A stretch of DNA of 64,000 nucleotides from Candidatus Poribacteria bacterium (GTDB lineage Bacteria > Poribacteria > WGA-4E > WGA-3G): the NCBI GenBank assembly GCA_965198235.1, contig OZ240248.1, positions 4,998,881 to 5,062,880 on the forward strand, read 5' to 3'. The notes beneath the pieces were generated by a model. It was not told where the DNA came from and ran no database searches. It saw only the letters and a program-made list of their open reading frames with translations. How positions within the stretch are numbered: position 1 is the first letter of the stretch; every line of letters begins with the position of its first letter. Below are positions 3,905 through 44,611 of this stretch, piece after piece. The translations under genes and the position numbers were made by a program.

Positions 3905-4699
3905 TTATTTTCTTTCTTTCAGTTCACCCCATGTAACAGCCAGTTTTCCCGCCGCTTCGACATCCAAACTAATATCCATCATCTCGTTAATCTCATTTTC
4001 GTCAAGGGCACGTTGCCAAAATGAAATCTCGTCAATAATCCCCTCAGCACCGTTTGTCATCGCGACATATTTGATCGTTTCCCAACCGAATCTCGGTTTT
4101 TCATGCAGGGCAGGGAAGCCACCGGTAATTTTACGACTGTTCGCTGCTTCTTTACCGTCGATGTAGAGGAAGGGAACTTCACCGGCGAAATCCCATGTCA
4201 CAGCACAGTGAAACCACACATCTTTTTTGATGATGCCTGTCGGGTCGAATTCAATATCTTGCCAATCTGCGTCATCGGCGGCTTCAAAATAGAATCCGAA
4301 GTCTTCGGGGTTGATGTCAGCGTGATTCGCTCCCTTGGAGACGAAGAAGTAGATAGGTCCGAAACTGGCATCAAAGATGCGATAATCGTCGCCATCCTTG
4401 CCATCCCAATCCGGTTTGAACCAGAAGAGCAGACTGCCTGCCTCGGTGATAACGTTGGGGACTTCCATGAAAGCCTCTGCGCCTCTCAGGGAAATTCCGG
4501 CGGCATATTTGCCTTCGCCAGCCACCCATTTTGCCGCGCCGCTAAACGCTCCATCGTTTCCGTTACCTGTACCATCAATTGCTTTGTTTCCACTACCTTC
4601 GCCGATCCACAAGAGCAGATCCTTATCGCCGGGGATTCCTGCGAATGAAGAAGAGATGGCAAATACACTGATAAACAGAATCAAGTAAATCTGTCTCAT
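3905..4699 (-). CDS. Exported LamG-like (concanavalin A-like lectin) domain protein with C-terminal TTW-type tail
   Basis: Signal peptide MRQIYLILFISVFAISSSFA. LamG_3-like end IDEISFWQRALDENEINEMM. Tail ..AAGKLAVTWGELKERK. Confidence 0.7.
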   Translation of the reverse strand: MRQIYLILFISVFAISSSFAGIPGDKDLLLWIGEGSGNKAIDGTGNGNDGAFSGAAKWVAGEGKYAAGISLRGAEAFMEVPNVITEAGSLLFWFKPDWDGKDGDDYRIFDASFGPIYFFVSKGANHADINPEDFGFYFEAADDADWQDIEFDPTGIIKKDVWFHCAVTWDFAGEVPFLYIDGKEAANSRKITGGFPALHEKPRFGWETIKYVAMTNGAEGIIDEISFWQRALDENEINEMMDISLDVEAAGKLAVTWGELKERK

Positions 4700-4738
4700 G
4701 ACCTCTTATTAACCTCCCAATGTTCAAATTTTGAGAGG

Positions 4739-4767
4739 ATTGTAGCAGAAATCATAAATTAAGTCAA
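4739..4767 (-). promoter_or_regulatory. Sigma-70-like promoter for the LamG gene
   Basis: The minus strand reads TTGACT-17 nt-TACAAT (-35 at 4767-4762, -10 at 4744-4739), about 40 nt upstream of ATG 4699. Confidence 0.4.
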
Positions 4768-5021
4768 TTGCTTTTCTTTCGCTCTGTGGTTTCTTGTTCA
4801 GGAGATGTCTCTGGCGCAGCTTTCTGCGTCGCTCTCACAGCTCCTGCCCCGTGTAAGAGTCGTTTTGGAACTGGTTGTGGTTGCGATGATACTGGACTTA
4901 ATTTTGGACGGGGTCGAAACTGTGGAAGCGGTCCCGGTGGCTCGTAAGTCGTATGTATTGGGCGTTGGCCTATTGAATGCCCAATGACGTGTTCTCTGTT
5001 TTCAACGGGTTGCTCTTTCAT
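4764..5021 (-). CDS. Small Pro-rich hypothetical protein
   Basis: 85-aa ORF whose ATG overlaps the stop of the upstream gene (ATGA at 5018-5021). Low-complexity, Pro/Gln-rich, with no recognisable domain. Confidence 0.3.
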   Translation of the reverse strand: MKEQPVENREHVIGHSIGQRPIHTTYEPPGPLPQFRPRPKLSPVSSQPQPVPKRLLHGAGAVRATQKAAPETSPEQETTERKKSN

Positions 5022-5548
5022 ACAATCATATCTCCCATCTGTTGGTTCAACTTTTCTTGAACCTTCTGGCGGTGTCTACGCGTCAAAAGAAAATCGTCCT
5101 TTAGCATTTGCGAACCCACCAATAACCACTCTCGGTACTGTTCAAATGTGGTTTTGAATTGCTCTAATGGGAAGTCGGGATTGGCTTCCATTTCGTAGAT
5201 AAACCGCTCCAGATTGAGGCGTAAGCTCTTAAAATACTGCGCATTGTGACTCAAATCTGCGACACGGTCCGAAACCTTAAGAATAACATGCAGAAGTGCA
5301 AAAAAGGCAGCACATCCTGCGATGAGTAGCCACGTTACTTTTCCTGCTGGTGTGCCCCATGCCATCCATCCGACCATGACTGAGGCGATAGTGGCGACAG
5401 TCACGGTGCTTTTGATGACTCCGTCTACGGGTCTCCACATTTGAAGTGCTGAAGTCATGAGGCTTTCGGTGTAAGCAACGCGGTAGAAGGTTTCAAGTGA
5501 TGTCTGCCAGAGAAGGTCTTTCTGATAGTCTGCAGCTGTCCTGTCCAT
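5018..5548 (-). CDS. Two-TM membrane protein, possibly SLATT-like
   Basis: Start moved to the ATG at 5548, which is preceded by AAGGAG. It has an N-terminal helix, two adjacent TM helices (VTVATIASVMVGWMAWG / VTWLLIAGCAAFFALLHVIL) and a helical C-terminal part. The domain assignment rests on architecture only. Confidence 0.5.
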   Translation of the reverse strand: MDRTAADYQKDLLWQTSLETFYRVAYTESLMTSALQMWRPVDGVIKSTVTVATIASVMVGWMAWGTPAGKVTWLLIAGCAAFFALLHVILKVSDRVADLSHNAQYFKSLRLNLERFIYEMEANPDFPLEQFKTTFEQYREWLLVGSQMLKDDFLLTRRHRQKVQEKLNQQMGDMIV

Positions 5549-5798
5549 TATATGGATCTCCTTTGGGGAATGCATTCCGTTACAGTAGTAGGTACCTTGT
5601 GTGCAATCACATAGGTTTAATATGTTATTAGGTAACGAAAGAATTAGGAATTCGGTAACAGACTTTTTAATTTTCCTTGCGGTTAAATGAAGTGGGTCAG
5701 TACATTAACACCCTTCGCTTTAGAGTCGCCCTCCATTTCATTACGGGCTTGCGATCTTGGGCCAAGAAGACAGAGGAATAGTTTCGATCAATTCACGG

Positions 5799-6941
5799 TT
5801 ACACACGGTAATGCTTTAGCAGTTCCCAGTTCGGAACAAAGCCGATACCGGGGCGAGTTGGAACTGTGACATGTCCGTCGGATTCTAAAACCATCGTTGG
5901 GAGAAACATTTCGCCTCGTAATGGGTCAACGGCGGGCGGGTAATACTCTAACATCAAACCGTTATCTCGACTTGCAGCGATATGGATTTGCAATTCTTGT
6001 GCCCCGTGCGGGGCAATTGACTTTTCGGCTGTCAATGCTTCTTCTACGACCTGCAATGCCGGCTCATAGCCAGGGAGGATGGCGACATCCAGATTGAAAA
6101 CGTCCGCGCCTTCATAATCAATGAGGATTTGGAAATAGTGTAACCCGTATCCGTTTTCTCCGGTGGCAATTTGTATCCCATAATCTTGTGCTATTTCGCG
6201 CAGTGCCTTGTGTCCTCTGTAATCGTGGCTGTGGATTGGTTCTTCAAACCAGAAAATGTCGTTCGCCTGAAGCGCAGGAAGGCATTCGCACGCCTTTTCA
6301 ACCGACCATGCACAATTCGCGTCCACCATTAGGGTTGTATCGGGACCGACGGTTTCGCGGACCGCCTCAATCCGTTTGATGTCCATTTCAAGTCCTGCCT
6401 CTGGATCCCCAATCTTCATCTTGACTGCGGTAGCATTGAATTCGTTTATGTTGCGCGCCATTTCCTCGCGAAGTTCATCAAACCCCTTACCTCTACCGTA
6501 ATAGCCACCGGCAATGTATGTGCGGATACGTTCTTGCGTGCCGCCAAGTAGCGCGTGAACGGATTTTTCTTCTATTTTCCCGCGGATATCCCAACACGCT
6601 TGATTTATCGCTGCCAAAACCTGCGTATGATAGCCGCCGGGTCCGTAGATTTTGTAGTTCTCGGCTAACCGCGAGACGTAAGCCGTATCCGTTACATCGC
6701 GCCCAATCAAGGTGGGACGGAACAAATCTACAAACATTGGGAACAGATGGAGGGGACGGGTCGCAGCGGTTCCACCATTGAAGCCGTATCCGACTAAGGT
6801 GTCAATTCCATTTTGGGCGGTAACTTTTATCAGATGGAGCCTACCTTTATCGTAGACATGCATCCCGTTCCAAATCGGTGGCTTGTCCCATTCGTAAAGT
6901 TCGCTTTCAATGGCAACGATTTTGAAAGAGTGTGGAGGCAT
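5799..6941 (-). CDS. Enolase-superfamily enzyme (mandelate racemase/muconate lactonizing enzyme family, sugar-acid dehydratase-like)
   Basis: KMKIG (KxK), MVDAN, FEEP and TGEN metal-ligand motifs sit at the canonical spacing. 380 aa. Confidence 0.85.
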   Translation of the reverse strand: MPPHSFKIVAIESELYEWDKPPIWNGMHVYDKGRLHLIKVTAQNGIDTLVGYGFNGGTAATRPLHLFPMFVDLFRPTLIGRDVTDTAYVSRLAENYKIYGPGGYHTQVLAAINQACWDIRGKIEEKSVHALLGGTQERIRTYIAGGYYGRGKGFDELREEMARNINEFNATAVKMKIGDPEAGLEMDIKRIEAVRETVGPDTTLMVDANCAWSVEKACECLPALQANDIFWFEEPIHSHDYRGHKALREIAQDYGIQIATGENGYGLHYFQILIDYEGADVFNLDVAILPGYEPALQVVEEALTAEKSIAPHGAQELQIHIAASRDNGLMLEYYPPAVDPLRGEMFLPTMVLESDGHVTVPTRPGIGFVPNWELLKHYRV

Positions 6942-6947
6942 TATCTT

Positions 6948-8168
6948 TTACTGTCCCTCCGTTATTAGTGGCGGTTTTGCGGCGAAAATTGTCAAACGCA
7001 ATTCCTCGTCAAATAGTTCGTATAGAGGTGTTTTTCCGCTCAGGGTTTCGCTTTCGTTCAAGATGATGCCGACACCTTCCCCTCGGCGTTCTAAAAAATG
7101 TCGTCGAGTTACCTGTCTCCGCATGTTGTCGTCGAGTGTAATTTCCGAAAGCAGGCGTGCAAGGAGTTCGTTGCGTGTAGCTTGACTGTAGCGTAGGTTG
7201 TCTACCGTCACTGTATTTGCCAATGCTCCCGGTGAATAAAGTTCCAGTCGGTCATCAAACATAAACAGCCGTATTTTTGATCCCGTTTTTGAATAATCTC
7301 TATGCACAACGGCGTTGACGATCGCCTCAAACACGGCGCGCATGCTGTATTCGGGGTAATCTATTCTGCCGATGTCCTTTCGCGCGGCGACTGCATTGTA
7401 TCTTTCAACAAATCTCATGGTATTTATGATTTGTTGGTCCAATGGTCCCTTAAAGTCCTTAGCATCAAGTTGGTAATTCGCGTCCCTTTCCTTACTGAGA
7501 TAAAAAACGGCTTGGATGAAACTGTTGTAAAGGTAGTCATCAGGGGTATCATGACACATCAAGACACCGGCTACAGAGGCACGGATTTCCTGACCTTCCT
7601 TGACGAGCAGATGTCTTTTCAGCAGTAAGTCATCTATCTCATCTTCTGTGGCACCTTCTGTGATAAATCGTTGATAGAGGTCTTTCCTTAATGTGCCTTT
7701 ATGCGTGTTCGGCACGAACTGTTCATCGAAAGTGATAATACGCGCCTGCGATCGAGTTTGGAACAGCCGTGCTAACTGCTCGGTGGGCATTTCCCTTTTG
7801 CTACTTCCTTGGCGAACAAAGTAACCGTTAGAGGTTTTGTGGACAAACAGACTCCTCGGCACCTCTATTTTTAACAGATTTTTGTCATTAATCCGCAGTT
7901 TTTCTGTAAAGATGAGAACTATCGGATCAATGCTGTCTTGGCATATTTCGACGACTGCTTTCTCCACATCACCCAGTTCTTGCCGGTCAATCCCGATGAT
8001 TTCACCATCGTTATCAACTCCAATGAGGATCACCCCCCCTTTGGCGTTGGCAAAAGCGGCGATCTCGTCGGCCAGGCTATTTCTGTGCGGCAGCTCTCTT
8101 TTGAATTCAATCGTTGCATCTTCGCCGAGATATATTTTTTCTATGAGTTCAGTCAAACTGTCAAACAT
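6948..8168 (-). CDS. AlbA_2 (Schlafen-like) DNA-binding domain plus HATPase_c_4 (RecG-C-terminal-like) ATP-binding protein
   Basis: N-terminus GEDATIEFKRELP..IAAFANAKGGVILIGVDNDGEIIGI. C-terminus NAVVHRDYS..GSKIRLFMFDDRLELYSPGAL. Confidence 0.75.
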   Translation of the reverse strand: MFDSLTELIEKIYLGEDATIEFKRELPHRNSLADEIAAFANAKGGVILIGVDNDGEIIGIDRQELGDVEKAVVEICQDSIDPIVLIFTEKLRINDKNLLKIEVPRSLFVHKTSNGYFVRQGSSKREMPTEQLARLFQTRSQARIITFDEQFVPNTHKGTLRKDLYQRFITEGATEDEIDDLLLKRHLLVKEGQEIRASVAGVLMCHDTPDDYLYNSFIQAVFYLSKERDANYQLDAKDFKGPLDQQIINTMRFVERYNAVAARKDIGRIDYPEYSMRAVFEAIVNAVVHRDYSKTGSKIRLFMFDDRLELYSPGALANTVTVDNLRYSQATRNELLARLLSEITLDDNMRRQVTRRHFLERRGEGVGIILNESETLSGKTPLYELFDEELRLTIFAAKPPLITEGQ

Positions 8169-8230
8169 CGCTAATTATTCAGGAGTAGTGGACAATAGTG
8201 AACTATGCACCTTTAAATTGTGAGAAGAAT

Positions 8231-8800: not shown

Positions 8801-8816
8801 TAGCGCAATGGGTTTG

Positions 8817-19051: not shown

Positions 19052-19735
19052 ATGAGAATGGCTATTAGATTCTCAAAGTTAATCGTCTTGAATCTCATCG
19101 TGCTTTTGGGGGTCGCGTTTTCGCTACCAACTTTCGCAGGCACCCAATTGTGGGACTTTGAGGAAAAGCACGATGACTGGAAAGTCGCGAACGGAAATTG
19201 GGAAATCAAGGGCGGTATCTACCAACTCGAAAGAGGCGGTAGAGCCGAACATTCTCTCGTCGGCGAAGAGGACTGGGACGACTACACCGTCGAAGCCAAG
19301 ATCCGGATGGACGAAGGCAATTGGGCAGGCTTAATCTTTCGAGCACAAAGTGAGCATGAGTATTACATCTACTACCTGAACGTTCCGAACAACAAGTCTG
19401 AGCTTTGGCGGCATAACAAAGGGGCGTGGGATTCGCGTGTCGCGATTACCAGTAATATTCCCGCCACTAAAAAAGTGAAGATAGAGAACGAAGAGTGGTA
19501 TGATGTTAAAGTAATCGTTGAAGACGGTATCTTCCAACTGCATATCAACGGTGAACTTCAGAGTGAACAGAAAGACGATGCCTACAAAACCGGCAAGATC
19601 GGTGTGTGGGGATGGGAAACCGCCGCGAGTTTTGATGATGTCACTATTACCGGCGATAATGTCATAGATACCCTTGCCGTTGATGCGAATCACAAGCTCG
19701 CAACAACATGGGGTCGCCTCAAACGGGTCTATTAA
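19052..19735 (+). CDS. Exported DUF1080/LamG-like jelly-roll protein with TTW-type tail
   Basis: Signal peptide. W..W.V..G.W...GIY, FRAQSE..YY.YYLN and FDDVTITG. Tail NHKLATTWGRLKRVY. Confidence 0.75.
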   Translation: MRMAIRFSKLIVLNLIVLLGVAFSLPTFAGTQLWDFEEKHDDWKVANGNWEIKGGIYQLERGGRAEHSLVGEEDWDDYTVEAKIRMDEGNWAGLIFRAQSEHEYYIYYLNVPNNKSELWRHNKGAWDSRVAITSNIPATKKVKIENEEWYDVKVIVEDGIFQLHINGELQSEQKDDAYKTGKIGVWGWETAASFDDVTITGDNVIDTLAVDANHKLATTWGRLKRVY

Positions 19736-19886
19736 TTTTCGGTAAAGTTCAGCCTCAGAAGTTTTCTACACGAAAACCTTGTTGAAGACTTTTGAGGCAA
19801 CCTTAATTTGGGCTTGTAGCCACGCTTAAGCATTTTCAAAGCGGTCTTCGGACAGGTTATCAAATATGGTTAGAAGGAGTGGTTTG

Positions 19887-20555
19887 ATGAAATATCTTTT
19901 TTCAATCGTTGTAAGTTGGTGTTTTCTCGTACTCGTAGCCTCCTTCGCTTTTGCGGGAGAGCAAGTATGGTCATTTGAAGCGGATGCAGACGACTGGGAA
20001 CCTGCTAACGGTTCTTGGAGTATTGAAGATGGCATTTATAAACTCGCCAAAGGCGGTAGAGCCGAGCACTCTCTCGTCGGTGACGCTGAGTGGGAGGACT
20101 ACACTGTTGAGGCGAAGGTTCGGCTTGATGAGGGAAATTGGGCAGGTGTTGTGTTTCGCGCCCAAAGCGAGATGGAATACTATGTTTACTATCTCAATGT
20201 CCCGAATAACAAAACTGAGCTATGGCGACATAAGACAGGGGCATGGGACGCTCGTGACAAGATCGGCGAACTCGCCGGAGCTAACATAACTGTCGCGAAC
20301 GGCGAATGGTTTGACATGCGAATCGTCTTAGAAGGCACTTCGATGAAACTCTGGATTAACGGTGAAGACCAGGGTGAACTTAAGGATGAAACCGGTGCTG
20401 GATACCCCGCCGGGCAAGCCGGTGTCTGGGCGTGGGAAACTGCCGCGAGTTTTGATGATGTCACGGTCTCTGGAGACGCTATCGTCGGTCTTACTCCGGT
20501 GGAGCCGCAGGATAAATTGGCGACGACATGGGGACGTATTAAACAACGTTTTTAG
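19887..20555 (+). CDS. Exported DUF1080/LamG-like jelly-roll protein with TTW-type tail (tandem paralog)
   Basis: Start at the ATG at 19887, after AAGGAG. About 60% identical by eye to the previous gene. Tail QDKLATTWGRIKQRF. Confidence 0.75.
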   Translation: MKYLFSIVVSWCFLVLVASFAFAGEQVWSFEADADDWEPANGSWSIEDGIYKLAKGGRAEHSLVGDAEWEDYTVEAKVRLDEGNWAGVVFRAQSEMEYYVYYLNVPNNKTELWRHKTGAWDARDKIGELAGANITVANGEWFDMRIVLEGTSMKLWINGEDQGELKDETGAGYPAGQAGVWAWETAASFDDVTVSGDAIVGLTPVEPQDKLATTWGRIKQRF

Positions 20556-22442
20556 GTGGTGTTTCCATTTCACCGCTGGGACGGTAGCAAGTGGTACGGA
20601 AACTTTCCTATTACACAGTCGTGTTGGTGGTGCTTGTCATGTGCTACCTTACCTTCTGGCAAGTTCCGAGCGCGTTCTGCCAAGAAAGTAGGTCCTGACG
20701 ACATCACAGCACAGATTCGTGCTTATAAGGCGGAGCTGGCTGTTGATAGTGCTCAGGTTAAAACTCGACTGCAGCTCGCGAAAGTGTATCTCCAAATTGA
20801 GGCTTACACGGGAGCAGTTGACGAGTATCATCGAGTCATAGCATTGATGGAAGCGAAGGCAGTTCCGGGAAGCGAAGAGATTGGGCACAACTCAGATATT
20901 TCCGCCGCCTACTACGGTTTGGGGTTGGCATATACCGGACTCGAAAAATTTGAAGACGCCGTAACTGCATATCAGCGTGCCATTGGGTTCGTTCCCGATT
21001 GGGCATATACACATGCAGCTTTGGCGAGTGCTTACGCGAACATGCACCGTTACGCCGAAGCACTCGACGCTTACAAAGTGGCGAACGCTTTGGACCCGAA
21101 CGATGAGATGATTCATCATCAACTCGGGAATGTCTATAGCAAACGTGGCGAACGTTCAGCAGCGATGCAGCATCAGCAACGTGCGATTGCCATTTCACCG
21201 GAATTCGCGGCTGCGCACTATCAGTTAGGGCTCCTCTACGCACAAGAAAAACGGTGGACTGACGCGATCGCGTCGTATCGGACCGCGTATGCACACGATG
21301 AGACGTTAGTTGAGGCACTCTATAATCTTGCACAGGCATCCCTTCGCGCTGGGAATGCATCGGCAGCGCGTGAGCAGATGGCACTCTTTGAGGAACGAAA
21401 AGCCGCCCTGATACCTCTGCACCAGTTGCGAGGCGCGTTGCAGCGGACGCAAGATACAAGTGAACGCGCCCAGATTCTCACCAACATTGCGAGGCTTTAT
21501 CTCAAAAACGGGTTTTACGAGAAAGCAGTCTGGGAGTACCAAAAAGCACTTGGGATGAACGCACAACTTGCACCTGCTCACAACGGCTTGGGTATCGCTT
21601 ATACGATGCTTGAGAAATACTCGGAAGCCGTTACTGCACAGCAGAAAGCGTTGGCACTCCAACCGAATTTCGCGAAGGCATACGCTGGACTCGGTTTAGT
21701 ATATTTCAGGCAGAATAAGGCAGAATCCGCACTGGAACATTACCGACACGCAGTCGCTTTGGAGCCCCAATTTTTGGAGGCGAATCTGAAGATTGGAATA
21801 ATTCTGCTGAATCAGAAGCGTTATGCGGAGGCAATTGATACGTATCTGGCAATCCTTGAAATTAAGCCCGACGATCCTGAGATATACCACAACTTGGGAT
21901 TATGCTATGCGCATCAGGCGAAAGCTGCACGTGACACGCGCCGATCTCCTGAAGATTTGACGGTTTCTGCATTGGAGGCACTTGAAAAGGCGGTTGCGCT
22001 TTCGTTATCTGACACCGATAATTCAAACGAGGCGGAGCAATTACCTATTCAGCCCCCGTTTTTGACGGAGACCTACTATCTCATCGGTGAACTTCAAGCG
22101 AGTCAAGGGGATTTTGATGCGGCGGAGACAGCTTACCTAACGTCCGGCTTGCCGAAGGCGTATCATGCCCTTGCACAGTTAAGGGCAAAGTTTGCAAAGA
22201 AAAATAAAGAAAACGGCAAACGTGGTGTGGATTTAGAAACCGCTCGGCGTTATGTTCAGGAAGCTATCCGCTTGGATCCGAACGTCGCGAGTTATTACAA
22301 TACGCTCGCCCTCATTGATTTTCGGCGCGGCGATCATTCACAGGCAGAGAAAGCGATCCGAAAAGCGTTGGAACTTGAACCGGAAAATCGAAACTATCAA
22401 CAGGGGTTAAAACAGATTTCTGGTAAATTAATGGCTGATTAA
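20556..22442 (+). CDS. Tetratricopeptide-repeat protein (true start uncertain)
   Basis: Repeated A..Y..LG..Y...g....A...Y..Al.l.P 34-aa units run throughout. The GTG at 20556 directly abuts the previous stop, and the first 40 codons or so look non-coding. Confidence 0.7.
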   Translation: MVFPFHRWDGSKWYGNFPITQSCWWCLSCATLPSGKFRARSAKKVGPDDITAQIRAYKAELAVDSAQVKTRLQLAKVYLQIEAYTGAVDEYHRVIALMEAKAVPGSEEIGHNSDISAAYYGLGLAYTGLEKFEDAVTAYQRAIGFVPDWAYTHAALASAYANMHRYAEALDAYKVANALDPNDEMIHHQLGNVYSKRGERSAAMQHQQRAIAISPEFAAAHYQLGLLYAQEKRWTDAIASYRTAYAHDETLVEALYNLAQASLRAGNASAAREQMALFEERKAALIPLHQLRGALQRTQDTSERAQILTNIARLYLKNGFYEKAVWEYQKALGMNAQLAPAHNGLGIAYTMLEKYSEAVTAQQKALALQPNFAKAYAGLGLVYFRQNKAESALEHYRHAVALEPQFLEANLKIGIILLNQKRYAEAIDTYLAILEIKPDDPEIYHNLGLCYAHQAKAARDTRRSPEDLTVSALEALEKAVALSLSDTDNSNEAEQLPIQPPFLTETYYLIGELQASQGDFDAAETAYLTSGLPKAYHALAQLRAKFAKKNKENGKRGVDLETARRYVQEAIRLDPNVASYYNTLALIDFRRGDHSQAEKAIRKALELEPENRNYQQGLKQISGKLMAD

Positions 22443-28610: not shown

Positions 28611-28901
28611 ATGAATATCTACGTTGGCAACGTGCCTTATGCGGCCACGGAAACCGACCTCGAAGAGCTCTTCGGTGAGTATGGTCCGGTTGCTACTGCT
28701 ACGATTATCCGTGACCGGTACGATGGTCGCTCCAAAGGGTTTGGCTTCGTTGAGATGGAAAACCAAGAGGATGGCGAGCGAGCGATAGAAGCGTTGGATG
28801 GCCAAGAGATGATGGGACGTCCGTTGAAAGTCAACCCCGCACGCCCTCGCGAGCAACGCCGCGAGCCCCGTCGGTATGACGACGCGGACAGGAATATGTA
28901 G
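28611..28901 (+). CDS. RRM-type RNA-binding protein
   Basis: MNIYVGNVPY (RNP2), KGFGFVEM (RNP1) and an Arg-rich tail. Preceded by AAGGAG. Confidence 0.9.
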   Translation: MNIYVGNVPYAATETDLEELFGEYGPVATATIIRDRYDGRSKGFGFVEMENQEDGERAIEALDGQEMMGRPLKVNPARPREQRREPRRYDDADRNM

Positions 28902-29148
28902 TCTGTTTCGTAACAATTTCAATGCAGCTCCGATTGTATAAACAGTTGGAGTTGGATTGGGAAAGTGTCGCGATGGGATGGAAACTATTATTTTGCGTCC
29001 TGCCGCGCTGATAAATTTTGCCCCGGTTTTGGATTTGTTTTCTCTAAACGAGTCTTGAACCGGGGTTTATCCGTTTAATATTGACATAGGACGGGTTGGG
29101 ATACAGCGATGAGTGCCGCTCCGTCAGCCCGTCCTGCGCTAAAATTGC

Positions 29149-29919
29149 TTAGTATTCTTTCCGCTTGAGGATGCCCCAAGTTACTGCGATTTTCCCTGCG
29201 GGTTCTACCGCAACCCCTAAGGCAGTCAAACCGTTATTCATAATATCAGCAATATCGGCATCAGTCAAAGGCGAGTGGAAGAGACCGACTTCGTCCATTG
29301 CCCCTACGAACCAATTGCCATTCGGATCCCAAACGCCACACCCGCCGATATTCACGTTGAAATCGGATCTGCCGTGATTGGACCACTTCCCGTTTTTTGT
29401 GGTAGGATTGCCATCGATGTAAACCTTCGTGAATTCTTGGGAAGCCACAGCGGCAACATGGTGCCACTCACCCGGTGGATGCTCGTATGGATTATTATTA
29501 ATACCGGCTGAGGGGGTCCATAGCGAAACGGTACCAGGGTCAATAAAACCGAATTCCGGTGAATCGTTCTGCCCAATTAATCCGATGCGATTCTCGGTGA
29601 TAGTTCCCGGTTTTATCCACGCAACAACCGTGAATTCCTTCTTGCCGTTAAGAAGTTTTTTGTTTGTGTTGACACAGCTGCCATCAAATGCTAAAGCACT
29701 ACCGAATCGTCCATCCACCCAAATGGGTGCGTTAACAATCGTTCCATGGTTATTGTTTCCTGAGGAGTCCATCGCTGTGCTTCCGCCCGCTTCGTCGAAC
29801 AGCCAAAGACCGACAACACTGCTCGGGTCAATTTCGGCACTACTACTGTTCACGGTAACGAGACTGATCGCCATCAGCCCTAAACTAAACAGGATAAATG
29901 TTAAAGCGTTAAATTTCAT
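29149..29919 (-). CDS. Exported LamG-like domain protein with TTW-type tail
   Basis: Signal peptide. LWLFDE..A.DSSGN.NHG, typical of LamG_3, and MDEVGLFHSPLTDADI. Tail PAGKIAVTWGILKRKEY. Confidence 0.7.
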   Translation of the reverse strand: MKFNALTFILFSLGLMAISLVTVNSSSAEIDPSSVVGLWLFDEAGGSTAMDSSGNNNHGTIVNAPIWVDGRFGSALAFDGSCVNTNKKLLNGKKEFTVVAWIKPGTITENRIGLIGQNDSPEFGFIDPGTVSLWTPSAGINNNPYEHPPGEWHHVAAVASQEFTKVYIDGNPTTKNGKWSNHGRSDFNVNIGGCGVWDPNGNWFVGAMDEVGLFHSPLTDADIADIMNNGLTALGVAVEPAGKIAVTWGILKRKEY

Positions 29920-32139: not shown

Positions 32140-32142
32140 TGG

Positions 32143-35170: not shown

Positions 35171-35671
35171 ATGGAAGCCGTTGAAGAAGCCACTCGCGAT
35201 ACAGAGTTCGCAAAGCAGTTTGAAGATTATCTCAAAAGTTGTGGACTCCGTTTGACCCAAAAGCGATTGGACATTTTAAACCAGGTCTTTGACTATCCCG
35301 GACATTTTCAGACAGAGGACCTTCTGGTGCAGATGCGTCGAAACGGCTATCTGGTGTCGCGTCCGACGATCTATCGGACGTTGCCGCTGCTGGTAAGAAG
35401 TGGACTGCTGACAGAATTTATCGATGCACAGAAGAACACTCGTTATGAGAGTATTCATTCACTTCGGGAGCATGCGCATCTTATCTGTCTTCGGTGTAGT
35501 CAGATTGTTGAGTTTAAAGAACCGCAAATTGATGCGTTGCAGAAAGCGGTGTGTGAAGCGCACGACTTTAAAGCCGTGCGCTTCCGTAATGAAATAATTG
35601 GTTATTGTGCTGAATGCCAAGCAGAATTAGAGCCAAGGACACCTGATAAAGACGACGAAACTACTGCTTGA
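35171..35671 (+). CDS. Fur-family metalloregulator
   Basis: Start at the ATG at 35171. LRLTQKRLDILNQVF winged helix, HAHLICLRCSQIVEF, and a CAEC second CxxC. Confidence 0.85.
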   Translation: MEAVEEATRDTEFAKQFEDYLKSCGLRLTQKRLDILNQVFDYPGHFQTEDLLVQMRRNGYLVSRPTIYRTLPLLVRSGLLTEFIDAQKNTRYESIHSLREHAHLICLRCSQIVEFKEPQIDALQKAVCEAHDFKAVRFRNEIIGYCAECQAELEPRTPDKDDETTA

Positions 35672-35916
35672 GCCGACTCCACGTTGTGGTTAGCAATCCA
35701 TCCGGATGCACCGGCAAAGTCTTTTCGTCGGCTTTCTCGTAGTCTTCATCCGTAGGTTGATATTCCAGGTCACTGGACCAGCAGAAAACATCGTACTGGA
35801 CCTGGAGCGAACTCTGCCGTGTCCATATCATCATGACGTTCTCACCGTCTTGTAAATGGCTGGACCAGCAGAAGACAGAGGGTTAAACCGAGCGTTAATT
35901 GGAATCTCTGAAGCAT
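35661..35916 (-). pseudogene. Decayed small secreted-protein gene carrying the TTW-type tail
   Basis: The ATG at 35916 (after AAGGAG) gives MLQRFQLTLGLTLCLLLVQPFTRR-stop. A +1 frame continues ..VFCWSS..MMIWTRQ..DVFCWSSDLEYQ..HPDGLLTTTWSRLKQ-stop at 35661. Its 3' end overlaps the fur-family stop by 11 nt. Confidence 0.3.
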
Positions 35917-38270: not shown

Positions 38271-38416
38271 TAACTATTTCCTTTCCGTTTTGAAAATGTA
38301 AAGAGATACGCGCCTTTTTCGCTGTTTTGCACACTATTCTATGCATGTTTTTTATTTTGTCAAGTGTGCCTTCTTGTTCTTTGAGACCATTTAGTCTTCC
38401 CTATTATAAGCCCAAC

Positions 38417-38490
38417 GGTTCAGGGAAACTATTTATTGCCAATCAACACGCATTAAGGAACGTGCGATGAATCGCACGACTACAAACACA
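38417..38490 (+). repeat. Intergenic structured repeat, copy c
   Basis: GGTTC-AGGGAAACTATTTATTGCC..GAACGTGCGATGAATCGCACGACTACAAACACA. Lacks the GTAGT of copies a and b. Confidence 0.6.
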
Positions 38491-38645
38491 CTCGACGGAT
38501 AGCCTCTAATCCGCTGACCTTTGTGAAGGTGCATCCGAAAATGTGTATGAGTGGTAAAATTGAATCACTTTACTTACCCGACACTTTTCGCGGTAAAATT
38601 TCCGTGGAACCTGAAGCGGAATAGCTGCAGTAACGGAGGCAGATA

Positions 38646-40187
38646 GTGATAAACCTTTGTAATGTCCTAAATAGTTCGATACGTCTACAGGTGCAGGCAC
38701 ATTGGGAACCGATTGCGGATTCTACGTTTCGTATGCACAAGACATCGCCAGAACACGTTGAACTCTTCGATCTGTCACCAAACCATCCTGTCAAAGAATA
38801 CAGGACAGACGCTTTCAAGGCATTTCTTCCGTCATCAACTGTAGGGGTGGGTGATGTTTGGGAACTTGATCCGAACAGTGTTGTCTCTTTCCTGCGCCAG
38901 TTTCATTCCGGTGTGACCACACCCGTATATCACGGTGCGGAGGGTGCGTTCGCCTGCTTACGTGCTTTTTCGTCAGTTTACGCTGAGATTGTTTTCCGAA
39001 TTCATGCGGACTTCACGTTGGAAAGCGTCGCTTATGAGAAGTGGCGTGCCGCCAACGCCTCGGAGGACGACGATAATAAATCCCGTTTTGTCCCCTCCCA
39101 TTTCGTCGGACGATTGTTAATCAATTTGAAAGAAGGAACGGTTCGGGTGTTTTCGCTCTATCTGCCGGCACGCAATAGTAACGTTGTCATCAGTGCTTTT
39201 GGCGGTATTGATATGGTTTATGTGCCGCGTATGGAACTCCTCGCTACGGACGAGACCGACAAAGACGAGATCGCGTGGGATGCTGCTATTACAACGGAAG
39301 AGGCACACCGGATGTTGGAATTGAAGTTCTATAAATTCGCTGAGATTGATTGGCTACCGATTGATGAGGCAGTTGCACAGGCGAAAGCGACCAATCGTCC
39401 GATCCATGCAATCCTCGTCTGGGGGTGTTTAGACGATGAATCCTGCTGAGCGAACGGCAAATATTTGAGGGCGGGTCCGCTCTCCGATTCAGAAGTGATA
39501 ACAACGCTCAACGAGAAGTTTGTCAATACATGGGTGCTCCTCCGGGAATTGCCAGAACTAATAGGTGGTGCGAAAGGCGAGGCGGTCAGCCTCGTCGCAA
39601 AAGAGATAAAACGCCACTACACTGACTCTGTAGATATTCTGGCACTCACCCCCGATGCGGAAGTTATCATGCATCAGCCGGAGATGGCTCTACCGTACAG
39701 GAACCAGGCGCAAGCGTATCTAAAAGTGTTACAGCATGCTGTGGACGCATTTGAAGGGAGACGCACCCGTGTAGGCAACGCGTCAAAATTAGATCGGAAC
39801 CCGATCAGCTTGGGGACGGAGTTGATGGAGGTTTTACACGTTTTTAGCACATCCGACACCAATACCCCGACTTACACAGTTATTGAAATTGATACGACAC
39901 CGTTTGAACGCGGTGGGATCCTCCACATTGAAATACATGTGGGTGAGAACAGGTTGGCAGGAACGTTTGAATTGTTTGATGCAGATACCGAAATTTCTAC
40001 AAAAAATGATGAAGATGAAACTCTGGATGGTGCATGGAACGTTTCATCCGGTGGTGTAGGGCACATCTTTCACGATTTTAGTCGGGGTCGGCGTTTCAAG
40101 TTAGTCGCTACAGGGGCAAACAACCAAAAGAGTGTTTCCAATGCTTTTCTGGCACGTGTCTCTATCGTCCCACCGTTTGAAAAATAG
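38646..40187 (+). CDS. Candidate selenoprotein A: unknown N-domain, thioredoxin-like fold with C-U motif (TGA 39447-39449 read as Sec), beta-rich C-domain
   Basis: ORFs 38646-39449 and 39465-40187 share a frame and are separated only by one TGA. The junction reads ..PIHAILVWGCLDDESC-U-ANGKYLRAGPLSDSEVITTLNEKFVNTWV. The second half has no SD or ATG. GTG start after GGAGG, and no signal peptide. Confidence 0.6.
39467..39484 (+). promoter_or_regulatory. SECIS-like hairpin 17 nt downstream of TGA (locus A)
   Basis: GAGGGCG-GGTC-CGCTCTC: 7 bp including one G-U pair, with apical loop GGUC. Confidence 0.45.
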
Positions 40188-40314
40188 CCCATATTATTCC
40201 AACCTACCTGTCAACGCGTGCCTGCCTATCTACGTTTCTATGAAATACATGCCGAATCGGTGGTGTTGTGTCTGTTCTATTAGGTTTGTGTCCGATTTTC
40301 CCTGATTTTTTGAA

Positions 40315-40357
40315 GAATTAGGCAACTTTCTTGTCCGTTACCCGCGTCACTATATAT
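40315..40357 (+). promoter_or_regulatory. ECF-type promoter motif P1 (GAATTAGGCAAC-N18-CGTCACTATATAT)
   Basis: AAC ends at 40326 and CGTC is at 40345-40348. About 120 nt upstream of the PD40 gene. Confidence 0.5.
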
Positions 40358-40477
40358 TGATATGGGAATCTACGCGAACAGAAACTTTCCGCGGGGAGGG
40401 TGTTTACATAGATATTTCCCGTAATTTAGTGTCGGGTAAAATCAAACATCAAGACTCATTTTAGTAGGAGGCACCCT

Positions 40478-41518
40478 ATGAAACATAAGTCGGTTTCTCC
40501 TTTTTTAGGAGTTGGAGGCTGCACCAAATTTCTAATATTCAGTTATGCTATCAGTGCCCTACTCATGTTCAGCGGCAGCACTGCTGTATGGGCAAAAGCC
40601 CCGGAGACAGCGAAAATTACATTTATGTCAAAGCGGGACGGTAACGCTGAGATCTATATCATGAACCCCGACGGGAGTGAGCAAGTCAATCTCACCCAAC
40701 ATCGTGCAGCCGATTATACACCAGCCTGGTCGCCAAACGGGAAACAGATATTGTTCAGCTCAGATCGAGATGGAATTTTTGATTTGTATCTTATGGACGC
40801 AGATGGCACAAATGTCCGGAAGGTGTTCGCAAGCAGCAAATACAGATGGGAGCCTGCCTGGTCGCCCGATGGTAAACGAATTGCCTATGCACAAGGAGAT
40901 CCAGGAAAGGCAAAACTACAGTTTGGGTTACGATTTGTCCCTTACGCCGATCTCACACTTTACATCGCAACACTAAATGGAGACTCCGTTGAGAAATTGA
41001 CGGATGGATTTGGTCCGAGTTGGTCTCCTGATGGACACGAGATAGCCTTTGTGGTGGGTGGTCGCAAAAGTACACTACTGGGTATTTACGACTTGAGGAA
41101 ACGTTCCCAAAAAACGCTCATCTCAAAGAAGATGCCGTGGATATTTGATCCCAGCTGGTCTGCACAGGGTGACAGAATAGCTTTCGCGAAACTCGAGGGT
41201 GCTGCGTTTGATGCACAAGGTTTTCTTAGGTTTAAGAAGGGTACGATTTACACCATAGATAGTGCTGGGGGTGGACTTCATCAGATTACCGACGAGAACT
41301 CTTCTGACCCAACCTGGTCCCCAGATGGCAGCGAACTCATTTACAACTCTCGGGTGGGTTTTTCGCAACTCTTCAGAACGGGCTTGAACGGCGACAATCC
41401 AACACAACTGACGCATGACGGAAGTAATTTGAGTCCAGATTGGTTTGACCCCTTTTATAGCGTTTCGCCGTCGGCGCAATTGTTAACGACGATGTGGGGA
41501 AAAATCAAAGTGGATTAA
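40478..41518 (+). CDS. Exported PD40/TolB-like beta-propeller protein with TTW-type tail
   Basis: Signal peptide. Repeated (P)xWSPDG/NG blades. Tail [15 protein letters not shown]. Confidence 0.8.
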
Positions 41519-41607
41519 GTTAACTATAAATCGTTCCAGATTCAGGGCAGTGAATGCCTTTTGCTTCCAATTGTCAAAATTTATTCCCAGATTTTCATTT
41601 TTTTTCA

Positions 41608-41650
41608 GAATTAGGCAACCGTTTTTCCGATCCTCCGCGTCACTATATAT
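41608..41650 (+). promoter_or_regulatory. ECF-type promoter motif P2
   Basis: GAATTAGGCAACC..CCGCGTCACTATATAT. AAC ends at 41619 and CGTC is at 41638-41641 (18-nt spacer). Confidence 0.5.
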
Positions 41651-41714
41651 CAACACGATATTTGTGTGACAAATTTTGGAAGATTCAAATGACTCCATAG
41701 GAGGAAGCGAAAAC

Positions 41715-42536
41715 ATGTTACGGACATTTACTGCTGCTTTTTCGAGTGTCATTATGCTATTGCTGGCAGCTTCTGCCAACGCGGGTTTGGATGAAGATCT
41801 CGTTTTTTATCTGACCTTTGATAACGTTAAAAATCAGACGATTATTGATGAATCTGGCAATGGTCTTGATGCAGAAATACTTGAGCATGTCGAGATTGTC
41901 AAGGGTAAATATGGAGATGCAATCCGTCTTAAAGGTCAAAGCGGGGATTGCGTTAATATCCCTGCTCAAGAGAAATTGAAAGTTATAGGCGAGATAACAA
42001 TGATGGCATGGATTTATTCTCCAGAAACATGGAACAACGAGAAGATGCATTGGCTGGAAAAAGATTGTCATTTCGTTGTTCCGATTGGTTGGGCGCACTG
42101 TTACGGTATCGCTGGTGTTGATGTCGGTAACGGACCAGAAATCTTTTTGTTTTTGGGATCACAGGTAGAGGGGAAATGGGACCGGCAGGAGTTCAGAACT
42201 CCACATAAAATGGGCGAAAAAAAATGGCATCACGTTGTCGGAAGTTACGATGGCGAAACCATGAAAATCTATGTGGATGGTACAGTCATAGGGGAAGAAA
42301 AGAAAAAATTCAATTTCTTTGGAGACAATGACGCGGACGTTCGGATCGGATGTGCAAAAGATGTCCCCCACCTTACATTCACAAACGGCTCTATTGATGA
42401 AGCTGCGGTCTGGCAACGAGCACTGAGTGATGATGAAATTAAACAAGCCATGACAGGGAACTTTCTCGCTGTTTCGCCGAGCGATAAAGTGGCGACGACT
42501 TGGGCGGATATGAAAAGAAGAGCAGTCGTTCCTTAA
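41715..42536 (+). CDS. Exported LamG-like domain protein with TTW-type tail
   Basis: Start set to the ATG at 41715 by comparison with the paralog at 43790 (RBS AGGAGGA). LVFYLTFDNVKNQT..DESGNG and IDEAAVWQRALSDDEIKQAM. Tail SDKVATTWADMKRRAVVP. Confidence 0.75.
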   Translation: MLRTFTAAFSSVIMLLLAASANAGLDEDLVFYLTFDNVKNQTIIDESGNGLDAEILEHVEIVKGKYGDAIRLKGQSGDCVNIPAQEKLKVIGEITMMAWIYSPETWNNEKMHWLEKDCHFVVPIGWAHCYGIAGVDVGNGPEIFLFLGSQVEGKWDRQEFRTPHKMGEKKWHHVVGSYDGETMKIYVDGTVIGEEKKKFNFFGDNDADVRIGCAKDVPHLTFTNGSIDEAAVWQRALSDDEIKQAMTGNFLAVSPSDKVATTWADMKRRAVVP

Positions 42537-42579
42537 CGGCTACCTGCAAAGTCAGAATTTCCCCATAAAGGAATGTAGG

Positions 42580-43602
42580 ATGAAAACAATACGGTTGTTA
42601 GTTTTTGCCATATTGAACATATTGATGCTGAACGTAAGCGTTTGCCTCGCTTTCGCAACAGCACCCACAACCGCCAAAATTCTGTTCACCTCTTCACGGG
42701 ACGGCAATTATGAGGTCTACATCATGAATCCGGACGGTAGTGAACAGGTGAATTTAACACAACATCGCGCAAATGATTTTCAAGCCGTATGGTCCCCCAC
42801 TGGGGAGCAGATTCTTTTTGTCTCCGATCGCGATGGCGGCATCCGAGACTTGTATCTGATGGACCCCAGTGGATCCAATGTCCGACGCGTTTTCACGAGG
42901 AAACGAAAGTCTTATAGGGATTCTCCGACGTGGGCACCCGATGGCAACCAGATTGCTTACGTACACCTGAATTGGAACGGTGTCAGGTTCCATATCTACG
43001 TTGCAATCTTGGGTAAACAAAAAGAGGAACACCTCGTTGAGGGTAGACGTCCGACGTGGTCACCCGATGGAACGAAAATAGCATATATGTCTTATATTGT
43101 AGATACCTGCCGAATTGCTCTTATTGACCCCCACACACGAAGGCAAAAACACCTCCTATCGAGGAAAGCAACGCCTTGGCAAAATCATCCATTTTGGTCG
43201 GCTACGGGGAGCAAACTCGCTTTTTCTTGGAATAAGAATCCGTTACCGCGCCTTTTGCCGGGTGATCGTTTCCCATCCGTATGGCTGGATAAGGAGACAA
43301 TCTATATTGTGAACAGCGACGGGACCGATCTCCGAGAACTTCTGGATGAAGCTGGGCCCAGAGCACAGTATCCAGTGTTGTCGCCAGACGGGAAAGAGGT
43401 ACTTTATACACAAGAAATTAAGGGTCGCCTACAAATTTTCAAACTTGATGTACACAGTGCCACTCGGGCACAGTTGACAAATATCGGGCGAGTCTTTGAG
43501 GCGAATTTCGGAGGGGATTGGTTCGATCCTGTGTATTCGTTGCCTGTTTCGCCACAATCGCGACTGCTAAGCACAGTATGGGGAAAAGTAAAAAAGAAAT
43601 AG
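42580..43602 (+). CDS. Exported PD40/TolB-like beta-propeller protein with TTW-type tail (paralog)
   Basis: Signal peptide and WSP(T/D)G repeats. Tail QSRLLSTVWGKVKKK. Confidence 0.8.
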   Translation: MKTIRLLVFAILNILMLNVSVCLAFATAPTTAKILFTSSRDGNYEVYIMNPDGSEQVNLTQHRANDFQAVWSPTGEQILFVSDRDGGIRDLYLMDPSGSNVRRVFTRKRKSYRDSPTWAPDGNQIAYVHLNWNGVRFHIYVAILGKQKEEHLVEGRRPTWSPDGTKIAYMSYIVDTCRIALIDPHTRRQKHLLSRKATPWQNHPFWSATGSKLAFSWNKNPLPRLLPGDRFPSVWLDKETIYIVNSDGTDLRELLDEAGPRAQYPVLSPDGKEVLYTQEIKGRLQIFKLDVHSATRAQLTNIGRVFEANFGGDWFDPVYSLPVSPQSRLLSTVWGKVKKK

Positions 43603-43682
43603 TGTCATAGGTAGAATCACCATGAAACTGCTGTGTTATGCACGTTTTCCGCTTTGTGTATCATATTTTCTTTATGTTTGCA

Positions 43683-43725
43683 GAATTAGGCAACCGTTTT
43701 GTCTGTCTCCCGCGTCATTATATAT
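43683..43725 (+). promoter_or_regulatory. ECF-type promoter motif P3
   Basis: GAATTAGGCAACC..CCGCGTCATTATATAT. CGTC is at 43713-43716 with an 18-nt spacer. The downstream leader is nearly identical to that after P2. Confidence 0.5.
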
Positions 43726-43789
43726 CGATACGATAGCTGTGTGACAAATTTTAGAAAGTTCAAATGACTCTATAGGAGGAACAGAAAAC

Positions 43790-44611
43790 ATGTTACGGAC
43801 ATTTATTGCTGCTTTTTCGAGTGTCGTTATACTGTTGTTGGCAGCTCCTGCCAACGCAGGTTTGAATGAGAAACTCGTTTTTTATCTGACGTTTGATAAT
43901 GTTAAAGATCAGACAGTTGTTGACGAATCTGGGAATGGTCAGGACGCAGAGATACTTGAGAACACCGAGATTGTCAGGGGCAAATATGGGAATGCCATTC
44001 ATATTACAGATGATGGTCAGGATTGCGTCAGTATTCCTTCTCAGGAAAAACTGAAAATTACAAGCGAAATAACAATGATGACCTGGATTTATTATCAAGA
44101 AACATGGAAAGGCAAAAGGATGTTGCATTGGCTTGATAAAGGCTGCCATTCGGGAGACGGTTGGGCTGGAACTTACGGTATCGGCAGTTCCGATATCGGT
44201 AACGGACCAGAGATTGTGTTGTTTTTCGGGTCGCGGGAGAAACAGGGGATTACGGACCGGCATGAATTCGCAGTTCTACACAAAATGGGTGTTCAAAAAT
44301 GGCATCATGTTGCTGGGAGCTACGATGGGAAAACCATGAAAATTTATTTAGATGGTAAAGTCATAGGTGCGGAAAAGAAGAATTTCAATCTCTTTGGTGG
44401 TAATAACGTGAACCTCAGGATCGGATGCGCAAAAAACAGCCCGCAGTATGCATTTGCCAACGGTTCTATTGACGAAGCCGCAGTCTGGCAACGAGCATTG
44501 AGTGATGATGAAATCAAGCAGGCGATGGTAGGGGACTTCCTCGCTGTTTCACCGAGTGATAAAGTTGCAACGACTTGGGCGGATGTGAAAAAGAGGATGA
44601 TAGCCCGTTAG
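43790..44611 (+). CDS. Exported LamG-like domain protein with TTW-type tail (paralog of 41715-42536)
   Basis: About 70% identical by eye to 41715-42536. Tail SDKVATTWADVKKRMIAR. Confidence 0.75.
   Translation: MLRTFIAAFSSVVILLLAAPANAGLNEKLVFYLTFDNVKDQTVVDESGNGQDAEILENTEIVRGKYGNAIHITDDGQDCVSIPSQEKLKITSEITMMTWIYYQETWKGKRMLHWLDKGCHSGDGWAGTYGIGSSDIGNGPEIVLFFGSREKQGITDRHEFAVLHKMGVQKWHHVAGSYDGKTMKIYLDGKVIGAEKKNFNLFGGNNVNLRIGCAKNSPQYAFANGSIDEAAVWQRALSDDEIKQAMVGDFLAVSPSDKVATTWADVKKRMIAR

Follow-up and report, generated by a model that had tools for sequence, protein, structure and literature searches.

The window analysed here, a 64,000-nucleotide stretch of a Candidatus Poribacteria genome (contig OZ240248.1, forward-strand positions 4,998,881 to 5,062,880), encodes eight intact open reading frames (ORFs) and one deletion remnant whose translations end in a common peptide, [LF]-x-[AP]-V-[ED]-[PA]-x2-3-K-L-[AT]-T-T-W-G-x-[LI]-K, followed by 1-8 residues to the stop codon. 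We refer to this peptide as the TTWG tail. It has a defined anatomy, is modular, stands strictly at the C-terminus, is coupled to N-terminal signal peptides and, in structure models, is detached from the fold that it follows. The tail is probably a phylum-specific, modular C-terminal tag with a sorting, anchoring or docking role, read by a factor of the cell envelope.

In the mechanism that we propose, the N-terminal signal peptide would carry the protein across the inner membrane, and the globular domain would fold. A trans-acting factor of the envelope would recognise the flexible tail, which lies outside the fold, in the form of an extended linear peptide, and would retain, anchor or dock its bearer at the envelope or the cell surface, or pass it on to outer-membrane export. 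Through its likeness to the PEP motif of PEP-CTERM, the V-[ED]-P element may mark a site of processing. We infer that the tail is recognised in trans and serves in sorting, anchoring or docking, possibly with cleavage.

Sequence, position and cargo of the tail

On translation, all eight C-termini quoted in the initial annotation, which had been made from the sequence alone, proved exact. The N-termini of the eight intact ORFs are hydrophobic, with the AxA-like cleavage sites of Sec-type signal peptides, and form helices in AlphaFold2 (AF2) models of a DUF1080 protein (residues 2-18) and a PD40 protein (residues 2-24); the signal peptides that had been proposed for all eight are thus borne out. 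A six-frame search of the window for W[GAS].[LIVM]K returned 11 matches, nine of which were tails with the stop codon 1-6 residues away. The tail typically comprises 18-20 residues, and 16-21 across the nine window copies.

Such recurrence might be an artefact, either a DNA or RNA repeat at the 3′ ends of genes or the last beta-strand of each domain, and the recurrence itself is all that speaks for either form. The codons for the conserved residues vary synonymously and freely among the nine window copies, and the DNA 3′ of the stop codon is unrelated among them. With synonymous sites so variable, the conserved entity is the peptide rather than a DNA or RNA repeat, and a DNA-level repeat at gene 3′ ends is ruled out. 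The tail peptide is under purifying selection.

Beyond the window, a DNA-pattern scan for K-L-[AT]-T-T-W-G-x-[LIMF]-K was run on one genome per species (185,579 species, 596 Gb). The pattern carries about 36 bits, for which about 13 chance matches are expected by calculation; the scan gave at least 119 independently fetched stretches of 8 kb each. Unless stated otherwise, the counts below refer to the stretches listed together with the window. A motif without enrichment at C-termini, an outcome the initial annotation had allowed for, is not what was found: 175 of 177 motif matches lie no more than 12 residues from a stop codon. The motif closes 151 complete ORFs with a median length of 260 aa. 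An N-terminal hydrophobic signal, called by a hydrophobicity heuristic, is present in 136 of these, and the other 15 are fragments. There was no genuine lipobox among the complete tail ORFs.

The logo of 173 unique tails reads [LFAV]-[LTF]-[AP]-V-[ED]-[PA]-x-[GD]-K-L-[AT]-T-T-W-G-x-[LI]-K. Its positions -5 to +4, counted from the Trp, are partly set by the search pattern, which had no influence on the upstream V-[ED]-[PA] or on the length constraint. The Val is found in 161 of the 173 tails and a Pro or Ala in 152, with Glu or Asp between them. The initial annotation had the core of the motif right, while the two PD40 tails of the window deviate from its pattern and the conserved region begins further upstream than it had stated, at [LF]-[LT]-[AP]-V-[ED]-[PA]. 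The most invariant block is K-L-x-T-T-W-G-x-[LI]-K, placed where tripartite signals have a transmembrane (TM) helix. The Lys at +4 is invariant and is followed by 2-4 residues to the C-terminus in 146 of the 173 tails, most often by three. These residues are mostly polar or basic with a net charge of +0.7. The last residue is Arg or Lys in 72 tails (Lys in 19) and Phe, Tyr or Trp in 25, and there is no true Arg cluster. As had been claimed, no hydrophobic TM segment is present: the Kyte-Doolittle 15-mer maximum over the last 30 aa has a mean of 0.35 and a peak of 1.47.

In alignments of orthologues, conservation of the V, P, K, L, T, T, W, G and K residues is at least 0.9, that of the linker 0.4-0.7 and that of the last three residues about 0.2. 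The tail is kept in 118 of the best 120 homologues of the DUF1080 protein and in 117 of the best 120 of the PD40 protein; these homologues are 53-96% identical and, where named, belong to Candidatus Poribacteria.

With signal peptide and tail removed, 142 tail proteins fell into 19 clusters by blastp, and Pfam and NCBIfam families were assigned from cluster representatives. The Pfam families are LamG_3, by far the largest group, 3keto-disac_hyd (DUF1080), CBM9_1, F5_F8_type_C, DUF3108_like, PD40, Kelch and LTD; at least eight clusters had no Pfam match among the representatives scanned. A modular tag shared across unrelated folds, as the initial annotation proposed, agrees with these at least 19 clusters of different Pfam families or none. 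Its count of three domain families in the window needs amending, since LamG_3 and DUF1080 are both concanavalin-like: the intact ORFs hold two folds, and a third family is represented by the decayed ORF. Lectin-like proteins of a single domain make up most of the carriers. The tail was also seen on a protein of about 400 aa that combines ankyrin repeats with a metalloprotease motif, HEIGHNFGLND, and on giant secreted proteins with lamin-tail domains (LTD), of 968 aa (L022, positions 4279-7182, plus strand) and 1681 aa (L112, minus strand). In the latter type, an immunoglobulin (Ig)-like domain of about 95 aa (LPVELSxFRP...VVYYYQIEDVSLDG...) is directly followed by the TTWG tail. Because the LTD giants carry it, the tag extends beyond small proteins of one domain.

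Some chromosomes contributed more than one of the separate 8-kb stretches; OZ246958.1 and OZ246979.1, for example, gave three each. Away from the ascertained matches, 4-10 non-exact tails were found per Mb, a density to be taken as a rough, lower-end indicator.

Among the matches listed, the tail is restricted to the phylum Poribacteria. Of the at least 119 stretches, 108 are labelled Poribacteria, eight “uncultured bacterium”, and one each Synechococcus, Pseudomonadota and Deltaproteobacteria. The Synechococcus stretch is a chance match, with no stop codon nearby and no tail. The Pseudomonadota-labelled stretch L044 (RHO2_bin_21) has genuine tails on a short contig of a metagenome-assembled genome (MAG), and the Deltaproteobacteria-labelled L109 (Meg22 bin) has a genuine tail on a 3.8-kb MAG contig. 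In the “uncultured bacterium” stretch L100 (SRP200020_co5_420; 64.6% GC), two Kelch proteins carry the tail. Either these three are mis-binned or unlabelled poribacterial contigs, or the tag occurs in a high-GC lineage or beyond the phylum. The GC content of the stretches listed ranges from 35% to 65%, and therefore the tail spans deep diversity within Poribacteria.

An HMMER profile retained columns of the LamG domain end (IDEVRIWNRAL..EI), and its best 150 matches were giant multi-LamG proteins aligned at profile positions 8-40; the 6,120 proteins at E ≤ 0.001 in this LamG-contaminated search are not a count of tails. A homology search with 45-aa C-terminal ends matched only fragment proteins of 43-79 aa, which pointed to the phylum but gave no measure of breadth. 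A scan of viral contigs gave one match, which was unrelated.

Position outside the fold and comparison with known signals

The second form of the artefact, a tail that is simply the last strand of a common domain, was also raised by the initial annotation. AF2 was run on two proteins with alignments of 63-64 sequences: the DUF1080 protein at 19887-20552 (64 sequences) and the PD40 protein at 42580-43599, in which a C-terminal “velcro” strand was most plausible. In the DUF1080 model, residues 24-196 form a concanavalin A-like sandwich with a predicted local distance difference test (pLDDT) score above 90, and the tail (residues 203-222) is detached with a pLDDT of 31-43. In the PD40 model, the propeller is closed to about residue 318 (pLDDT above 90), and the tail (residues 322-340) is again detached (pLDDT 41-42); the strand that closes the propeller is ...GGDWFDP, residues 309-315. 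The gap between domain end and detached tail is 6-8 residues in both models.

Domain boundaries agree with the models. On all eight window proteins, those with PD40 repeats included, the Pfam match stops several residues short of the tail. The matches on the LamG and DUF1080 proteins extend to the last profile positions, LamG_3 stopping at residue 224-243 of 256-273 and 3keto-disac_hyd at residue 194-200 of 222-227. In the PDB, the DUF1080 protein has levanase CBM66 chains (4b1l and 4azz) as its homologues; they align up to query residue 194 and terminate within two residues of that point. The two AF2 models, the Pfam ends and the CBM66 ends rule out the tail as the last or velcro strand of its domain, and the sharing of the tail by at least 19 clusters speaks against a common domain. 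In the models of both folds, the tail lies outside the folded domain. With both of its forms contradicted, we consider the artefact refuted.

The initial annotation also held that the tail fits no named signal, which agrees with our searches. At E ≤ 1, no NCBIfam model covered the tail in the eight window proteins (the library includes PEP-CTERM, GlyGly-CTERM, MYXO-CTERM and type IX secretion system [T9SS] types A and B), and no Pfam model fell on the tail in the window proteins. A PDB search with the tail profile gave noise only, with E values of 0.7 or worse. The strings LTTTWG, LATTWG, KLTTTW and KLATTW occurred in no relevant paper of the literature searched, and the literature searched on Poribacteria held nothing on the tail. 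The tail is therefore undescribed in the curated libraries and literature searched.

Haft set out eight attributes of small C-terminal sorting signals (bioRxiv 10.1101/2023.06.07.544157), of which the tail has the first, second, sixth and seventh and, in part, the third, fifth and eighth. It is located at the C-terminus (attribute 1, from the 175 of 177 matches near a stop) and occurs in many copies per genome (attribute 2), given nine copies in the window and several stretches from single chromosomes. The carriers have signal peptides and are otherwise unrelated (attributes 6 and 7), as the 136 of 151 ORFs and the 19 clusters attest. A leading signature (attribute 3) is present as V-[ED]-[PA], but the strongest conservation sits in the later middle block. 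For the 2-5 basic residues at the end (attribute 5), there are the invariant Lys at +4 and the net charge of +0.7 after it. Homologues of other lineages without the signal (attribute 8) are seen through domain models and the PDB only, in that multi-lineage Pfam models and the CBM66 chains stop before the tail; the best 120 homologues are tail-bearing close relatives. A hydrophobic segment long enough for a TM helix (attribute 4) is lacking.

Like the PEP-CTERM/exosortase, LPXTG, GlyGly-CTERM, MYXO-CTERM and PGF-CTERM signals, the tail stands at the extreme C-terminus in many copies within one lineage, and like signals of the PEP-CTERM type it is found on signal-peptide proteins that otherwise share nothing. 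With PEP-CTERM it shares, in part, a Pro-containing signature upstream (V-E-P in the tail, V-P-E-P in PEP-CTERM) and a basic end. Unlike PEP-CTERM-type signals, the tail has about ten mixed residues (K-L-A-T-T-W-G-x-L-K) and no TM helix between signature and basic end, and its conservation peaks in this middle segment, not only in the leading motif. Since the tail has no membrane-spanning segment, intramembrane sortase-type handling is impossible, and the machinery must therefore differ from all named CTERM systems. No gene for a sortase, exosortase, rhombosortase or myxosortase was found in the 64-kb window.

The T9SS C-terminal domain (CTD) resembles the tail in that a Sec signal is combined with a C-terminal signal without TM helix on diverse cargo, and the cargo of both consists of unrelated, often beta-rich, carbohydrate-binding or propeller proteins. 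The CTD, however, is a folded Ig-like domain of 70-100 aa, whereas the tail, from its models, appears to be an unstructured peptide of about a quarter of that length. TIGR04183 and TIGR04131, the T9SS CTD models, had no match on the eight window proteins at E ≤ 1. The tail is thus not a T9SS CTD. In terms of Haft's attributes it behaves as a sorting signal, and, lacking both the defining TM helix and a folded CTD, it belongs to no named signal family. Poribacterial WD40 proteins have been reported to give T9SS-CTD-like matches, with the Por machinery not found; no Por structural genes were present in poribacterial single amplified genomes, and the secretion route was left open (Kamke et al. 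2014, PMC3909097).

Other short or modular signals share some features with the tail. The CsgA N22 curli signal and the beta-signal of outer-membrane proteins (OMPs) are short linear peptides that act in the periplasm toward an outer-membrane machine, as is proposed for the tail. N22, however, is N-terminal, and the OMP beta-signal is the last strand of a barrel with an aromatic end, whereas 25 of 173 tails end in an aromatic residue and their cargo consists of soluble sandwiches and propellers. The soluble cargo and the few aromatic ends speak against an OMP beta-signal. Cargo-targeting peptides of encapsulins and bacterial microcompartments act on cytoplasmic cargo that lacks a signal peptide, and the signal peptides in 136 of 151 ORFs do not fit them.

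Candidate partners and competing roles

The neighbours of tail genes offer candidates for a partner. All ORFs of at least 120 aa were clustered, and same-strand adjacency to tail genes was counted. Two secreted families are enriched. FG-GAP/UnbV_ASPIC genes (cluster c4) adjoin a tail gene in nine of 12 cases, whereas the background rate is 15% (93 of 629 genes; binomial p = 5e-6); their products are 36-47% identical to each other and stand beside four different tail families. TPR genes (cluster c7) adjoin tail genes in six of 11 cases (p = 0.002). The p-values overstate independence, because the loci were chosen for their tail genes and several are orthologous; about 5-6 independent contexts underlie the counts. 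This adjacency is a suggestive lead to the machinery. The TPR protein of the window, whose N-terminus shows no clear signal peptide, is a weak candidate for a partner of the tail.

The recurrent gene orders are one or more tail genes followed by TPR, and TPR, then FG-GAP/ASPIC, then one or more tail genes. Operon-like cassettes composed of TPR, then FG-GAP/UnbV_ASPIC (CRTAC1-like), then one to three tail proteins of different families occur in the poribacterial stretches L065, L088, L095, L024, L033, L051, L105, L114, L090 and L073.

Such neighbours raise the possibility that the tail is a docking tag for multiprotein complexes, comparable to a miniature dockerin or PTS1 and bound by the FG-GAP/UnbV_ASPIC proteins, the TPR repeat proteins or both. 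A common scaffold would then carry exchangeable lectin-like modules, an explanation that overlaps with a sorting tag and places its function in complex assembly. The adjacency of c4 genes to tail genes and that of c7 genes, including the one right after the DUF1080 pair in the window, are in line with it, and the cargo consists almost entirely of binding modules. Extended C-terminal peptides are common ligands of TPR and propeller domains, as in PEX5-PTS1, HOP-EEVD and BamD with the C-terminus of OMPs. On the other side, the loci were ascertained and partly orthologous, most tail genes (including seven of the nine in the window) have no FG-GAP/ASPIC or TPR neighbour, the window TPR protein shows no clear export signal, and TPR and ASPIC/UnbV pairs also exist in phyla without the tail. 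As for the models themselves, dockerin-cohesin of the cellulosome and PTS1-PEX5 likewise use a common C-terminal module on diverse cargo, but a dockerin folds into a Ca-binding domain of some 70 aa and PTS1 is a tripeptide at the very end, where the last residues of the tail are variable; recognition by a repeat protein, as in PTS1-PEX5, is for the tail only suggested by the enrichment of TPR and FG-GAP neighbours. We regard a role in complex assembly, the main variant of the preferred explanation, as rather unlikely.

The composition of the tail may instead suggest a non-specific anchor to membrane or lipopolysaccharide, that is, a short cationic, Trp-containing amphipathic segment that would sit in the interface of the inner or outer membrane like the C-terminal amphipathic helices of PBP5/6, acting with no dedicated machinery. 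Leu at -4, Trp at 0 and Leu or Ile at +3 are spaced as i, i+4, i+7, the Trp is invariant and flanked by Lys before a basic end of net charge +0.7, and the AF2 models show a short helix of low confidence over W-G-x-I. For the 11-mer core, however, the hydrophobic moment lies at shuffle level (helix 0.325 versus 0.275 ± 0.14 in shuffled sequences; strand 0.305 versus 0.271), the mean hydrophobicity of the core is about 0, and Thr-Thr-x-Gly is a poor helix former. Moreover, T-T-W-G and the distant V-x-P are near-invariant across families, a pattern usual for peptides bound in a protein pocket but not for generic lipid binding. The moment and the near-invariant sequence lead us to reject a PBP5/6-like amphipathic anchor, and the non-specific anchor in general is improbable.

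A handle for degradation, maturation or attachment would also be expected at this place on exported proteins: the tail might be a degron for a periplasmic PDZ protease or, through its Lys, be linked to peptidoglycan as in Lpp. The strict C-terminal position, the invariant Lys 2-4 residues from the end and the export of the cargo are compatible with it. PDZ proteases and Lpp-type L,D-transpeptidases, however, read the extreme C-terminus, which is the least conserved part of the tail (0.2) and ends in Lys in 19 of 173 cases only, and a constitutive degron on perhaps dozens of proteins under purifying selection is hard to rationalise. We therefore hold such a handle to be highly improbable.

The sorting, anchoring or docking tag read by an envelope factor accordingly remains the explanation that we prefer, and several points weigh against it. 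The receptor, protease or transpeptidase that it calls for is hypothetical, as are localisation and cleavage. The tail is without a TM helix, the defining attribute of all known small CTERM signals, and the analogy with them is only partial. The low pLDDT of the tail means that, in the models, it does not pack on its own domain and says nothing of binding to a partner. Extrapolation to a copy number per genome is rough and weak, and divergent versions of the tail may occur outside Poribacteria.

More tentatively, the TTWG tail may be the first short, linear, TM-less C-terminal envelope signal, read by a machinery confined to Poribacteria that displays or docks dozens of lectin-like modules per cell. 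If so, dozens of LamG, CBM9, CBM66-like, discoidin, Kelch and PD40 modules would be displayed or docked by one tag, which could explain the display of “eukaryote-like” binding proteins in sponge symbionts without a T9SS or known sortase. Among uncultivated sponge symbionts, Poribacteria rank with the most abundant and widespread, and a part in contacts with the host matrix has been ascribed to their many secreted proteins of the “eukaryote-like” and carbohydrate-binding kinds. The tail bears on the delivery or surface retention of these proteins, for which a secretion pathway was noted as missing (Kamke et al. 2014, PMC3909097). Present on a large share of these proteins, the tag defines, from sequence alone, a candidate proteome of surface or secreted proteins and provides a query for phylogenetic profiling toward the machinery. 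To the known sorting signals at bacterial C-termini it would add a short peptide without TM helix, with a mechanism unlike those of sortase, exosortase, rhombosortase and T9SS, and such a short, portable tag could serve surface display or affinity docking.

Tail-bearing genes of the window and their surroundings

The tail-bearing genes of the window and the adjoining TPR gene are listed in Table 1. The tail genes are scattered among housekeeping genes (DNA polymerase I, UbiD, tRNA synthetase, ABC transporter and Fe-S assembly) and form no dedicated island. Proteins identical to those of the window, with gene order unchanged, are encoded on contigs of the ENA assembly ERZ25067264; an exact-sequence look-up of the protein at 3905-4699 returned no record.

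Table 1 Tail-bearing genes and the adjoining TPR gene in the 64-kb window (positions in the window).
Positions	Strand	Length (aa)	Product	Tail	Tail positions	Remark
3905..4699	-	264	LamG_3 secreted protein	VEAAGKLAVTWGELKERK	3908-3961	
19052..19735	+	227	DUF1080/3keto-disac_hyd (CBM66-like) secreted protein	VDANHKLATTWGRLKRVY	19679-19732	
19887..20555	+	222	DUF1080/3keto-disac_hyd secreted protein	VEPQDKLATTWGRIKQRF	20499-20552	AF2 model made
20556..22442	+		TPR protein (cluster c7)			Start abuts stop codon of DUF1080 pair
29149..29919	-	256	LamG_3 secreted protein	VEPAGKIAVTWGILKRKEY	29152-29208	
35661..35916	-		Deletion and frameshift remnant of 233-aa secreted family	VHPDGLLTTTWSRLKQ	35664-35711	
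40478..41518	+	346	PD40 (TolB-like) beta-propeller secreted protein	Variant, 18 letters	41462-41515	
41715..42536	+	273	LamG_3 secreted protein	VSPSDKVATTWADMKRRAVVP	42471-42533	
42580..43602	+	340	PD40 beta-propeller secreted protein	VSPQSRLLSTVWGKVKKK	43546-43599	AF2 model made
43790..44611	+	273	LamG_3 secreted protein	VSPSDKVATTWADVKKRMIAR	44546-44608	

Both PD40 tails of the window lack the Lys at -5, and the stretch from V-x-P to the LTTxWG core is longer by one residue in them; orthologues of these proteins end canonically in ..PQLLTTTWGEVKKK. The decayed ORF that the initial annotation saw ending at 35661 does carry the tail, to which we add that it lies on the minus strand and is an internal-deletion remnant of a 233-aa family. 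Its stop codon is at 35661-35663, the in-frame C-terminal 57 codons occupy 35661-35834, and a signal-peptide fragment near 35916 is in a different frame from these codons. An intact 233-aa homologue, P0246, was found elsewhere.

The PD40/LamG tail cluster is flanked by genes for signal-peptide proteins ending in ...DDESC or ...ADESC (38646-39449 and 45181-46020), each followed by a gene for a protein that ends in ...NAFLA.[IV]S[IV] (39465-40187 and 46078-46866). These DESC/NAFLA gene sets are paralogous (38646-40187 and 45181-48291). The second set closes with an extracytoplasmic function (ECF) sigma factor (46963-48291), whose C-terminal extension belongs to the NAFLA family. Pfam gave no match on the two sets except for the sigma regions. 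They may form a sigma/co-sigma regulatory module for the PD40/LamG tail cluster.

In the related ENA contig L003 (8695-9136), a GH32 gene is directly followed by LamG-tail, PD40-tail and LamG-tail genes. Compared with L003, the window has about 3 kb extra at 38270-41700, consisting of a DESC-family gene, a NAFLA-family gene and a second PD40-tail gene, a difference that is strain-level structural variation. The window itself encodes a GH32 fructosidase without signal peptide at 36924-38270 (minus strand) as well as the DUF1080 pair (19052-20555, plus strand). The GH32 gene and the likeness of the DUF1080 pair to levanase CBM66 hint that some tail-bearing modules may bind fructans.

A gene for a 96-aa RRM_1 RNA-binding protein lies at 28610-28900 (plus strand), as judged from the matching ENA contig L001. 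The longest-ORF pass had chosen an overlapping minus-strand ORF (28512-28922) in its place, which is probably spurious.

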